Assembly: GCA_963720565.1 (NCBI GenBank)
Contig: CAVRFW010000003.1
Span: 106,547-170,546 of the forward strand
From: Candidatus Bathyarchaeota archaeon
Lineage (GTDB): Archaea > Thermoproteota > Bathyarchaeia > Bathyarchaeales > Bathycorpusculaceae
DNA length: 64,000 bases
Direction: 5' to 3'
Part shown: one piece after another, positions 48,001 through 51,000 of the stretch
Position numbering within the stretch: the first letter of the stretch is position 1
How the letters are laid out: every line of letters begins with the position of its first letter
Made by a program: the position numbers

Positions 48001-51000
48001 TCCTGAATCGGTGTATATGCAAATTGAAACATCAAAGTAGGAATCAATTTTCTCTGCAAACGAGCAGGTGAATGATTGCTTGGGCAACGGGCTCAGACTC
48101 TTAGAGTTGTTGCTTCGCCAAAAACTCTTTGGTTCAGGGTCTAAAGGGAGAACCAAACACCCCGACCGTGGTTTCTTACGCTGTCACAAAAGCATGTAAT
48201 CTTCGGTGCTTGCACTGCCATGTTTCGGCTACTGAGGCCATGCACAATGAGCTTAGCCTGCGAGAGGCGATGCACGCAATAGACGAAATGGCAAATCTGG
48301 GAACCCGAGCTTTGATCTTCAGCGGTGGAGAACCTCTTCTTAGGAAAGAGTTCGTTCTGTCACTTGCGGAGTACTGTGTTGACGCAGGCATGTTGCCTGC
48401 TATCCTGACGAATGGTCTTCTGCTCGATCACAAAGTAGCTTTTGAGCTCAAAGACTCAGGAATATTGGCTGTAGGCATACCTATCGACTCGATAGTTCCT
48501 CAAACGCATGACAAGTCTAAGGAATATGGCTGGCGCCTTCGCGAAAGCTGTAGAGGCGATTAAGGCTTGTTTAGATGTAGACTTGGAAGTGGTAATCACA
48601 ACGATGGCTTTGAAAAACACTTACGATGAAATACCCCGAAGAATAGCTTTCCTGGCAAAATTGGGGGTGGAACAGGCTGCCGTCTACGATTTGGTTCCAG
48701 TGGGGCGGGGAAAGGAGGTCATGGACCAAGCGATGAGCCAAACGCAGCGAGTGAGTCTGATAAAGTATCTTCAGCAAATCCAGGAAGATGGCGAGATGGT
48801 TTTCACCATGTCAGGCGGACTTCCGCTGTATCCAGAAATTGTTTCCGAAATGCACAAAATGAACGGTACTAAACCTCGCGATCTCTTATTGAAACAGTTC
48901 TGGCTCGATGCTTCTGTCGGTTGCCAAGCAGGGATTCTGTATTTCAGTTTGCGACCGAACGGCGACGTGTACCCATGCACTTTTTTGCCAATAAAAGTTG
49001 GGAATATTCGGGAGCAAAGCTTAACCCAAATTTGGAACAGCTCCAGAGTCTTAAGGGACCTCCGACAAAGACGCTTGCTGAAAGGGCAATGTGGAGCATG
49101 CGAATACCGAGAAACATGCGGAGGATGCCGGGGAAGGGCTTACGCTTACAGCGGTGACTACCTAGAAACAGATCCTGTTTGTCTGCGTGACTTAATGTTG
49201 GAGGATAATGTTTCGCCTTCTGCCATAAAGCGTTGCGGCTGGTGCGTTGGATAGACCAGCGACTGTTTTGCAGCGCTTCTGTTTCCGGTTTTCTATGGGG
49301 AGCAATAGGCTGGGGAAAGCGCGGTTCAAATTGATCTTAGGTTAGTCTCTTAAACTATTTTCCTGTTTTGGCAATGGTCTCTTGTGGCAGTTTTCGTTAA
49401 TCTTTTTTCATTGCTTTTGCTCTAAGCTCTTTGGGCATCAGCTCTATCGCGTATCGAAGCGCTGTCCGTGGCATAGTCTTCCTTTTTGTGAGAACATAAT
49501 CCAGCACTTCTCTTTGGTGCTTTCTGCTTGCTTCTTTTAGAAGCCACCCGTAGCCTTTCTGCACCATTTCATCTTTATCAGACAAAAGTATGCTGCTGAT
49601 TTCGAGGGCGTCCTTCAAGAAGTCGCCTTTCTTAGCTGGAACTATGAGGGAGACAGCTGCTGCTCTTTTAAGCCATGGATTGTCGGATTTTGCCCATTTT
49701 TTCAATTCCATTACAGCTTCCGGTTGTCTTTCTATGAGACCTCCAATCGTGTGGTTGCAAAATCCATCACATTTTGCCCAATTGTCGATGTAATGCTCAA
49801 TCCATGACTTGAAAGTTGAGAGGTCACTTAGCTCAAGTTGCATAATCATGTTGGGTAACCAAGAAGAAACGATGAAAGCTTCTTCAGTAAAACCGGAACG
49901 TAATAACTCTTCACAAAGTGAAAATACTGTTTTCTTGTCAAGGTGCTTGACTTCACTCCAGTGTTTGTTGGCTATCTTGTTAACTAAACCGGTTTTGACG
50001 CCGTAGTATGTTACTTTCTCTTTGAAGAATCTTTGGAAACTATTTCGAGTTTTGCCGTCTGAGTTCGCTTTAAGCTCTTGCCTGATTGCTTCTATGATTT
50101 CATCCATAGCTCGAAAAGAAAGAGGTGGCTGCCAAAATACCTTTTCCTGAAAAAGATGGTGTTGAATTAAATGATGGCTTAGAAAAAAACTTGGGAGCGC
50201 TTAAGGCTCTTCCATCTGGTAGAGTTCCAAATCTATGTCTATTTTGGAAGGCTTTTCACGTTCAACAGTAGTTTCAATATTATAGAGTTTAGACATGATT
50301 TTTCCAACCTCGGTCTGACAAATTTTGTTTTTCTGGATCAGAGCTGCTTTTATTTTGCGTTCAATTCTGTCTTCAGGTGGAATCTGGGCGCTGCGAATAG
50401 CGAGGGAGTTTTTGTTAAGCACGTCTGTGGTGCGAGTCCTCGCTTTCTCTACTTCATCAAGGTTAATGTGGCATTTCACAGTGATTTCGTCAGGTGATTG
50501 CTTAGTCAACTCCTTTCCTCCGCCAAACTTCGGCACTGATTAAATCTCGAATCGCGACGCGGATGGCTTCAGCCCTGTTGGGATAGAACCTTTCGCCCAC
50601 GAGCTGGTCCAAAGCTTTAATATACGTTTCAGGTAGATACAATGTAATTAGCTTCATATGCTTCTCTCCCTCAGTAAGCTACGACAAGGATGCTTGTAGG
50701 TTATACTTCTATATATTATGATACATATATGTGGCAAATATGTTCGTTACTTCCTTTTTAAATGTTTTGCAAATCATGTTGCAGTTTTCTGTTAATTCTC
50801 GCGTGAAGTCACCTTTATGTTTTTATTGCTTGTTGAATCATCTACCGTAATGCGATGAAGAAAAATGCGCGTTTTCCTAAAGAGCTACGGTTGCTCCGCA
50901 AACCAAGCTGACAGCGAAGTCTTATCCGGTTGTCTAGCGAAAGCCGGATACGAACTAACTAATTCAATTTCGGAAGCCGATGTTATAGTTATCAATACCT

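Follow-up and report, generated by a model that had tools for sequence, protein, structure and literature searches.

What has become of ftsZ2 in an archaeal genome where no tubulin/FtsZ domain is found, and why would a fragment of it be kept? In TACK and Asgard archaea it is still an open question how division shifts from FtsZ to ESCRT-III in lineages that have both, and the answer matters for how eukaryotic division arose. Bathyarchaeia are widespread sediment archaea in which the filament-forming part of FtsZ has been lost repeatedly and a small tail protein survives. We examined one such case in a 64,000-nucleotide stretch of a Candidatus Bathyarchaeota genome, the whole of which is referred to here as the window.

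As a preliminary description had reported, an unannotated frame encoding 102 aa overlaps the end of cdrS, the overlap being 8 nt (Table 1), and no tubulin/FtsZ domain was found in the genome, which is 88.8% complete. The product, mini-FtsZ, has no Pfam or NCBIfam match at cut-off, including PF00091, PF12327 and TIGR00065. Slot, overlap and alignment all agree with the proposal that the gene stands where relatives carry full-length FtsZ, behind cdrS. The start at -8 is also used by most full-length ftsZ genes of relatives and by 80/80 loci of a further set, and a GGAGG-type site lies just upstream; we infer that cdrS and mini-ftsZ2 are translationally coupled. The synteny of cdrS and ftsZ2 in archaea is described in the available text of PMC7439475. 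Of 19 tail-only frames checked in other families, 18 lie beside the methylthiotransferase gene that marks the slot.

Table 1 Features of the mini-ftsZ2 locus, in window positions
Feature	Position	Strand	Basis
mini-ftsZ2, tail-only FtsZ (102 aa, TTG start, stop included)	50201..50509	-	Alignment to full-length FtsZ; dN/dS below 1
Retained FtsZ2 N-terminus, residues 1-13	50471..50509	-	Multiple alignment with full-length relatives
Deletion joint of mini-ftsZ2	~50470/50471	-	Multiple alignment; bridged by contigs from four runs
Residues 14-66, what is left, with drift, of the end of the FtsZ C-terminal (activation) domain	50312..50470	-	dN/dS; AlphaFold2; other lineages
Motif 1, L75-Y-N-I-E79	50273..50287	-	Pattern conservation; model contacts
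Motif 2, L96-Y-Q-M-E100	50210..50224	-	Invariant in 34 short forms; model contacts
cdrS, ribbon-helix-helix regulator	50502..50657	-	RHH_1 E 3.6e-7; NF058555 CdrS E 2.9e-10, below cut-off
tRNA methylthiotransferase gene (MiaB-like-B), divergent; context only	50865..52151	+	TIGR01578 above cut-off; marks the ftsZ2 slot

Residues 8-100 of the product align to 278-369 of the FtsZ of a sister lineage (G021, 371 aa from TTG) with 32% identity (E 3e-13). In the multiple alignment, FtsZ2 residues 1-13 are fused in frame to ~284-371, and both the GTPase domain with GGGTGTG and the T7 loop are deleted. This confirms the in-frame internal deletion that had been suggested and places the joint at residue 13 / ~284. 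PF12327 covers 237-330 of a full-length relative, of which mini-FtsZ retains only ~284-330, drifting and without a match. At the other end, T2 is invariant and K12 at least 90% conserved among 34 short forms. An AlphaFold2 model of the monomer shows no fold (mean pLDDT 60, pTM 0.18), the ESM Atlas gave no usable match for the protein, and the middle region is shortened or lost in other lineages; residues 14-66 are probably an unfolded linker. By its slot behind cdrS and its homology to the full-length FtsZ of that slot, mini-FtsZ belongs to the FtsZ2 lineage by descent, the FtsZ1/FtsZ2 assignment resting on synteny. Because the GTP-binding domain and the T7 loop are lost, it cannot form an FtsZ filament.

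An assembly artefact was rejected. The joint is bridged by contigs 96-98% identical from four RNA-library runs (three studies), which were chosen for sharing words of the stretch, were used as contigs only and may contain DNA; 1019 protein clusters of 41-186 aa also match the short-form profile. The RNA-library contigs cover cdrS and the joint but not the methylthiotransferase gene, an observation that we do not take as proof of expression.

The replacement of FtsZ by the mini-protein, first described for a large part of the family, proved larger than claimed. A reduced frame is present in 42/151 family genomes and a full-length FtsZ without GGGTGTG in a further 6/151, and 21 more tail-only frames were found in seven other Bathyarchaeia families; this count leaves out G172, which resembles a full-length gene with a frameshift, and G194, where a contig end interrupts the frame. 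G037 (N gap), G023 and G052 (contig ends) and G085 (ambiguous slot) were not counted as minis, and the loci G072b/c and G016b were rejected as cdrS paralogs without ftsZ. Frames of only 50-70 codons occur in families f5, f10 and f27, where the middle has shrunk to almost nothing. The frame is intact in 34/36 and 76/79 short forms of two sets; four copies (G148, G142, L226 and L242) carry a frameshift, either a sequencing error or decay.

The deletion had been thought to have arisen at least twice, and the tree of RpoB and RpoA1 from 44 genomes extends this, requiring four deletions and seven GTPase losses. The tail was kept in every one of these cases where it is assembled. A single origin spread by descent was rejected (p-AU 9e-47, AU test of a single clade). 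The type B short forms have GTPase-dead full-length forms as their sister group (SH-aLRT 98), and a GTPase-dead full-length stage is seen in g4, g52, g55, g62, f4, f22, f25 and f30. We infer that, on many occasions, decay of the GTPase came first and its deletion followed. Since the class shows each stage many times independently, the indispensable part of FtsZ can be read from it: the putative SepF-binding tail, not the GTPase.

The tail had been characterised by an invariant LYQME and an upstream glutamate. LYQME is indeed the same in all 34 short forms compared, and its codons vary synonymously, but instead of a single tail plus a lone glutamate there are two motifs, L(Y/F)(N/D)LE and LYQME, 19-21 residues apart. 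The first pattern occurs at this spacing in 34/34 short forms and 37/37 full-length sequences, and in 76/76 of a second set that overlaps the first. The second, which stands where the GID tail of archaeal FtsZ would be, reads GLDQIE or HLDQIE in the sister families f5 and f3. The GID motif, called nearly invariant in archaeal FtsZ in the accessible part of PMC8178401, is absent from the short and full-length family sequences; its position reads (D/N/G)-L-Y in 18/18 short and 36/37 full-length sequences, with one E-L-Y. The tail, judged by sequence, is a tandem two-motif variant and not the canonical archaeal motif. Among 14 main-type pairs of short forms (dS ~1), dN/dS was 0.10 for the last motif, 0.15 for the 34-codon tail and 0.30 for the middle. 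Purifying selection acts on the short-form tail, less strongly than on its full-length counterpart (0.15 vs 0.05), and the middle drifts (0.30 vs 0.035 in full-length FtsZ).

The claim that this tail binds SepF now has support as a prediction, from a complex model and from the co-occurrence and co-decay of tail and SepF. ESMFold2 scored two SepF copies with the tail at 0.70, against 0.16 for the best of three controls; runs agreed in at least 82% of contacts, with partner pLDDT of at least 64. Of 157 solved complexes 116 reach the pass mark, as do 2 of 215 mismatched pairs; these counts apply only approximately to the present case. In the model, strand I91-L94 of each SepF protomer pairs with one motif, motif 1 on one protomer and motif 2 on the other, and the interface comprises SepF residues 34, 36, 38, 59, 63, 66, 73, 91-97 and 108-110, many of them invariant columns. 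The tail is thus predicted to bind the SepF groove beside strand beta3, one motif in each groove of the dimer. The model may pass by likeness, because a SepF-FtsZ tail complex has already been solved (7AL2; PMC8178401, passages available); only the apo entries 3ZIE and 3ZIG match the SepF of this genome by sequence. As in 7AL2, the tail is predicted to add to a SepF strand. In the text available, the M. smithii peptide contacts mostly one SepF monomer, whereas the mini-FtsZ motifs are predicted on both protomers. The C-terminal region of FtsZ2 is also reported to bind SepF in Odinarchaeota and Haloferax (PMC12583498, available portion).

The retention of SepF alongside the mini-protein was likewise borne out, in 40/42 reduced-form family genomes and 5/5 long-contig genomes. 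Across the class, where kin are not independent, SepF is present in 53/57 genomes with a tail match and in 23/64 without; the other 4/57 have no SepF match. Seven families without a SepF match (24 genomes), most with CdvA, show no tail match. Motif 1 is gone from the remnant of family f24; of five genomes, one carries a SepF pseudogene full of stop codons, and in the other four SepF was not found. Tail and SepF decay together there. The SepF core has not lost conservation in genomes with the short form (identity 0.81 vs 0.83). In the genome studied here SepF is encoded at C9:257462-257845, with its core at residues 28-113.

Taken together, we think it probable that mini-ftsZ is a functional, translated FtsZ2 relic that acts as a bivalent SepF ligand and was kept after FtsZ2 stopped polymerising. 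Following the complex model, each motif would add a strand to one SepF protomer, and one mini-FtsZ would fill both FtsZ grooves of a SepF dimer or link neighbouring dimers. FtsZ2 polymerisation may have become dispensable in many Bathyarchaeia, and the SepF-tail complex could have kept a use as a membrane landmark or organiser under CdrS control. This suggests that cells reuse the SepF anchor without an FtsZ ring, and it predicts that the complex of SepF and the FtsZ tail has a role independent of polymers.

All of cdvA, cdvB (Snf7) and cdvC (Vps4) are present in the genome, where one locus (C9:453466-457089) holds PRC-barrel, Snf7, CdvA, CdvB and Vps4 genes, and Cdv/ESCRT-III might be recruited through PRC-barrel domains that bind SepF. 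CdvA occurs in 147/151 family genomes, with full-length and reduced FtsZ alike. The proposed switch to Cdv division is plausible for the family, in which the Cdv/ESCRT-III set probably constricts cells, but gene content does not show it, and genus g99 of another family, f17, keeps a tail-only remnant without Cdv. A long second CdvA was rejected as a general change of partner because it is found with the main short type and f5 and not with types B, C and D. In three f17 genomes (G184, G217 and G206), mini-ftsZ lies ~0.5 kb upstream, on the same strand, of a cdvB-cdvB-vps4 operon without cdvA. It is conceivable, though doubtful, that a hybrid division apparatus was built repeatedly in Bathyarchaeia, with tail-only FtsZ cross-linking SepF dimers into a platform that positions ESCRT-III. 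Two motifs against two grooves could form chains on the membrane, and mini-FtsZ may replace CdvA as membrane anchor in these three genomes. If this held, the class would preserve in living lineages the successive steps by which FtsZ gave way to ESCRT, from active through GTPase-dead to tail-only FtsZ2 and then to loss of tail and SepF.

The peptide might instead merely fill the hydrophobic grooves of SepF, or keep SepF inactive or stable, while SepF does its job without the peptide as organiser. The complex model and its invariant contact residues fit this equally, SepF persists in the 23 class genomes without a detectable tail, and the near-complete shrinkage of the middle would be tolerated. 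We regard it as unlikely, since most lineages keep the gene coupled to cdrS, the division regulator, its N-terminus is conserved too, and it stands just upstream of ESCRT-III/Vps4 genes in the three f17 genomes. That same position, together with the departure from GID, would suit a tail that binds a PRC-barrel protein, CdvA or the CdvB winged-helix domain rather than SepF. Such a partner is improbable: the model with SepF reaches the pass mark and its contacts fall on invariant residues, the tail decays with SepF in f24 while CdvA remains, and the SepF-less families lack a tail match even though most have CdvA.

The remnant could also supply a SepF-binding tail in trans to a ring-building, tail-less FtsZ paralog. 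The preliminary description held that no mini genome has a canonical FtsZ score, and this fails for a minority: a second tubulin match of 139-374 codons lies elsewhere in 6/36 main-type genomes. Inspection of four identified each as a tail-less FtsZ paralog, and one that was scanned passes the TIGR00065 cut-off (318 > 295 bits). The paralog is also present in G152 and G239. Genus g99 of family f17 fits, combining a tail-only remnant of 137-157 codons (G237 and G241, with a like-sized match in G248), SepF and a tail-less FtsZ GTPase above the TIGR00065 cut-off with no Cdv (no Vps4 orthologue, no CdvA match). However, the paralog was not found in 30/36 main-type genomes or 4/5 long-contig genomes (one titled a complete genome), it occurs beside intact FtsZ2 as well, and the remnant has no evident domain that could bind it. 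We give this division of labour little credence in general, and it is already unlikely for the window's genome because the paralog was not found there. Weak tubulin matches of ~890 codons in short-form genomes were rejected as FtsZ; they represent a divergent tubulin-like protein (~385-aa partner, no NCBIfam match). Finally, a non-functional frame on its way to loss, kept by the cdrS overlap or a DNA/RNA element, would account for the drifting middle, the absence of a fold, the four frameshifted copies and the decayed f24 remnants, but is strongly disfavoured by the dN/dS of 0.10-0.15, the free synonymous change in invariant codons, the intact frames and the survival of the same two motifs through every independent deletion.

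Mini-FtsZ, in our view probably a bivalent SepF ligand, resembles archaeal FtsZ2 (PMC7439475, PMC8178401 and PMC12583498, as far as their text is available) in its cdrS slot and overlap, its descent from the full-length FtsZ of the family and the retention of SepF. It differs in lacking the GTPase domain, the T7 loop and the folded C-terminal domain and in carrying (D/N/G)LYQME for GID. The FtsZ of Nitrosopumilus maritimus, a TACK archaeon with Cdv (Nmar_1262), lacks GGGTGTG and does not polymerise, and resembles the GTPase-dead full-length stage; it is full length, and the available part of PMC3684127 does not describe a retained SepF-binding tail, whereas in Bathyarchaeia the domain was deleted repeatedly and the tail is under selection. 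The truncated FtsZ paralogs of Hyphomicrobiales are likewise long-kept shortened derivatives, proposed to tune division; according to the accessible text of PMC13732431 they are bacterial duplicates of the GTPase domain that coexist with an essential FtsZ, whereas mini-FtsZ has lost the GTPase and mostly no other FtsZ was found with it. The haloarchaeal CdpB PRC-barrel adaptors, small SepF-binding proteins described together with CdvA in available parts of bioRxiv 10.1101/2023.03.28.534520, offer a route from SepF to a PRC-barrel or CdvA protein; they are unrelated in sequence and origin to mini-FtsZ, which comes from FtsZ itself and would act as a linear-motif ligand. The literature covered, which was largely open-access and included PMC10936438 except its supplement files 7 and 9, yielded no account of a tail-only FtsZ. 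Within its available text, PMC8178401 states as a rule that genomes lacking FtsZ lack SepF too. Apparent genomes with SepF and without FtsZ can be explained because domain searches miss mini-ftsZ genes, and most sources naming proteins that match the short-form profile call them 'hypothetical protein'.

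Deletion of the GTPase domain from an ftsZ gene is borne out by position and alignment. The 102-aa mini-FtsZ of the window matches nothing at cut-off in Pfam or NCBIfam, and no tubulin/FtsZ domain was detected in the window's genome (G000; 88.8% complete), as the preliminary description had claimed. The protein matched 110 of 151 genomes of its family, either in frames of ~100-120 codons or at the 3' end of frames of 369-386 codons. The latter encode FtsZ (394 bits against TIGR00065 for relative G021) and occupy the same slot, mostly with an identical start overlap with cdrS. 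We assign the slot gene to FtsZ2, since cdrS synteny marks ftsZ2 according to passages of PMC7439475. Residues 8-100 align with 278-369 of the G021 FtsZ (32% identity, E 3e-13), and in a multiple alignment mini-FtsZ consists of FtsZ residues 1-13 fused to about 284-371, so that the GGGTGTG and T7 loops are absent, as is half of PF12327 (which spans 237-330 in a full-length relative). Named relatives retrieved via CdrS were Candidatus Bathyarchaeia, three of them Ca. Bathycorpusculum, with a few under other labels. Descent from FtsZ2, the deletion, its repeated origin and protein-level selection on two motifs are demonstrated at the level of sequence. By domain criteria mini-FtsZ is outside FtsZ, yet it is an FtsZ2 descendant that, on modelling, would act like the FtsZ2 C-terminal peptide.

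Features discussed in the text (first five locations in window positions)
Feature	Location	Strand	Remarks
mini-ftsZ	50201-50509	minus	102 codons; TTG start overlapping last 8 nt of cdrS
cdrS	50502-50657	minus	RHH_1
tRNA methylthiotransferase gene	from 50865		divergent to mini-ftsZ; TIGR01578
split gene	48129-49254	plus	overlapping frames 48129-48563, 48508-49254
NHEJ-like genes	53211-56040	minus	three adjacent genes
tail-less FtsZ paralog	L344:3665-4786		GTPase motifs intact
tail-less FtsZ paralog	L294:1018-2136		GTPase motifs intact
tail-less FtsZ paralog	L456:1456-2535		GTPase motifs intact
tail-less FtsZ paralog	L458:1477-2517		GTPase motifs intact
tail-less FtsZ paralog	L388:1009-2115		GTPase motifs intact
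paralog neighbour	L357:8161-8565		divergent, ~130 aa
sepF pseudogene (L446)	G213:C126:3002-3289		in-frame stops
second CdvA-like gene (L343)	G000:C9:404669-405898		long Glu/Pro/Val repeat tail
second rpoB	G000:C13:128861-132233		two frames

The short form as an artefact was ruled out. Among the 80 loci closest to the window's CdrS, 76 were intact and three frameshifted short forms, and one was full-length without GGGTG; contigs of four RNA-library runs (three studies), 96-98% identical, span the joint; and a short-form profile retrieved 1019 protein clusters of 41-186 aa. Most of the 120 clusters listed are unnamed or 'hypothetical', and five are named FtsZ by JGI. Five short-form genomes have long contigs: all contain SepF, and FtsZ was not found in four of them, including one titled complete genome.

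We read the slot directly in the 151 family genomes, not via a feature search. The main short form (type A, including the window's gene) was present in 36 genomes of 11 genera (34 intact, two frameshifted), and six more carried other breakpoints: type B (G136, G034, G088), which retains ~70 N-terminal residues; G115, a member of that genus whose joint lies elsewhere; type C (G014); and type D (G011). The short form is confirmed and reaches further than the earlier count of 21 in 101 genomes. Full-length frames with destroyed glycine loops occupied six slots (G055, G052, G073, G003, G101 and G062; two end at contig edges), about 83 held a tubulin-bearing gene (motif confirmed on inspection in 41), and about 20 were not recoverable. 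In a midpoint-rooted tree of 111 genomes built on RpoB+RpoA1, type A was monophyletic, with the FtsZ-intact G021 and G037 as sisters, type B was sister to the GTPase-dead genus g4, and types C and D each adjoined full-length genomes. IQ-TREE analysis of 44 of these genomes gave four changes for 'short' and seven for 'no GTPase'; one clade of all short forms was rejected (p-AU 9e-47), which argues against a single origin and supports the proposal of at least two. Because slots in the sister families f2 and f3 hold intact FtsZ, we read the changes as losses despite the midpoint root. GTPase decay may have preceded deletion, an order for which the g4/g34 pair is the one direct example.

All 34 type A proteins compared share T2 and L96-Y-Q-M-E100, and K12, L75 and E79 are nearly invariant; the invariant residues are encoded by several codons, implying that selection acts on the protein. 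In 14 short-form pairs picked as tree neighbours (dS near 1), dN/dS was 0.10 for the last 13 codons, 0.15 for the last 34 and 0.30 for the middle, the last possibly an underestimate given simple counting on pairwise alignments; 12 full-length pairs gave 0.04, 0.05 and 0.035. The tail comprises two similar motifs, L(Y/F)(N/D)(L/M/I)E and LYQ(M/L)E, spaced 19-21 residues apart in 34/34 and 76/76 short forms (two sets that overlap) and at a constant 19 in 37/37 full-length proteins. The second lacks GID, nearly invariant in the FtsZ tail according to parts of PMC8178401, but reads GLDQIE or HLDQIE in sister families, which ties LYQME to the GID tail. The monomer is predicted to be largely unfolded.

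In Odinarchaeota the FtsZ2 C-terminal region is shown to bind SepF, and such binding is cited for Haloferax (passages of PMC12583498). With ESMFold2, two SepF cores and mini-FtsZ residues 62-102 scored 0.70 (best control 0.16), with at least 82% contact agreement between runs and partner pLDDT of at least 64. Of 157 solved complexes 116 attained the mark applied, as did 2 of 215 mismatched pairs, figures only roughly valid here, and the pass may reflect likeness to a solved complex (7AL2); the PDB entries matching this SepF by sequence were only apo 3ZIE and 3ZIG. In the model, residues 96-99 pair with SepF 91-93 of one protomer and 75-78 with 91-95 of the other; SepF 89-98 and 108-110 are invariant across 39 sequences. 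The model suggests bivalent binding, in which, with one SepF dimer present, clamping one dimer and linking two look alike. Gene content agrees with this pairing: within the family, 40 of 42 genomes with a short form have SepF, and across the class 53 of 57 genomes with a tail match (E<=1e-3) have it versus 23 of 64 without, where kin are not independent and the tail profile is biased to the own family. Seven families (24 genomes) without a SepF match had no tail match either; an exception, one f25 genome, has a tail on a dead full-length frame and no SepF match. In f24 (L446, L439, L443, L377), the ftsZ remnant behind cdrS is decaying and has lost motif 1, sepF is a pseudogene in G213, and SepF was not found in four further genomes (77-88% complete). 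Passages of PMC8178401 describe SepF as absent where FtsZ is absent; ftsZ remnants account for the apparent exceptions here. The SepF acidic linker is 40-100 residues longer in several type A lineages (L314-L317), and the N-terminal membrane-helix pattern of SepF looks altered in genus g51 (L313, L318).

It is reasonably likely that mini-FtsZ is a SepF ligand with an organising role: the complex, produced under CdrS control, would mark or organise a membrane site. In Haloferax, SepF binds the PRC-barrel protein CdpB1, and CdvA likewise contains a PRC barrel (parts of bioRxiv 10.1101/2023.03.28.534520), so SepF could reach ESCRT-III via such a barrel. That mini-FtsZ is a mere plug on SepF seems unlikely, and that its tail binds another partner somewhat more so. 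Slightly less probable again is a split FtsZ, the remnant being complemented by a tail-less paralog; genus g99 fits, having remnant, SepF and tail-less FtsZ and no Vps4 orthologue in 3/3 tested, but FtsZ was not matched in 30 of the 36 type A genomes. A vestige is very improbable given dN/dS of 0.10-0.15 in the tail and invariant residues on several codons. We found no report of a tail-only FtsZ in searches of mostly open-access literature.

The preliminary description had suggested a switch to Cdv division, which is plausible in this family, though gene content does not demonstrate it. In G000 there is a PRC-barrel gene as well as a Snf7-cdvA-cdvB-vps4 locus, and where FtsZ is missing in type A genomes, Cdv is the only known machine left, as in Nitrosopumilus, for which passages of PMC3684127 propose Cdv as divider and describe an FtsZ without GGGTGTG that does not polymerise. 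However, CdvA occurs in 147 of 151 family genomes irrespective of FtsZ state and is thus no marker of a switch. Two findings complicate the argument: a tail-less FtsZ paralog in some genomes (see below), and family f17, to which g99 belongs. CdvA had no match in 18 f17 genomes; in three (G184, G217, G206; L447, L425, L450) mini-ftsZ lies ~0.5 kb upstream of Snf7-Snf7-vps4 on the same strand with cdvA missing between them, and FtsZ was not found in G184 and G217. With g99 keeping remnant and SepF alongside tail-less FtsZ, the retained role would belong to the SepF-tail pair and be tied to no single constriction system. Part of the PMC10936438 supplements contains 'Bathy' rows of ESCRT components. 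A second CdvA-like protein is present in G000; such frames span mostly 275-600 codons in type A genomes and in f5, versus about 180-260 in types B-D and in most genomes with full-length FtsZ.

Across 121 class genomes, the tail profile retrieved 21 tail-only frames, 39-157 codons long, spread over seven further families (f5, f10, f12, f17, f21, f24, f27); our origin counts cover the own family only. The methylthiotransferase gene adjoins 18 of 19 tested, and both f5 frames are directly behind cdrS. Families f12 and f17 contain both intact and tail-only genes, and in f4, f22, f25 and f30 there are long frames that lack GGGTG. The reverse trend is seen in f2 (L366, L372, L379-L381, L387), where FtsZ2 is full-length with an intact GTPase and motif 2 is shortened or changed.

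The tail-less FtsZ paralog has intact GGGTG and T7 loops (sequences inspected for some) and by score is patchily distributed over 12 full-length and six type A genomes. The claim that no short-form genome has a canonical FtsZ score fails for this minority of 6 of 36 type A genomes, and the one copy scanned exceeds the TIGR00065 cut-off. Its context varies across family and class; in the own family and f5 it often adjoins a gene without Pfam or NCBIfam match, and in G128 its neighbours are presumably archaellum-type. A divergent tubulin-like protein of ~890 aa (L296, L298-L300), with a GGGTGSG loop, a ~385-450-aa partner and no NCBIfam match, occurs mostly in short-form genomes and f17.

Elsewhere in the genome, the second rpoB shares 86.5% identity with the C6 copy across 780 aa and has no rpoA after it, pointing to a duplicated gene or a contig stretch of foreign origin. 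The split gene, which we take to be radical-SAM from its CxxxCxxC motif, reflects a frameshift or sequencing error. The three genes resembling an NHEJ set are, as we name them from sequence, presumably primase-polymerase, Ku and ATP-dependent ligase.
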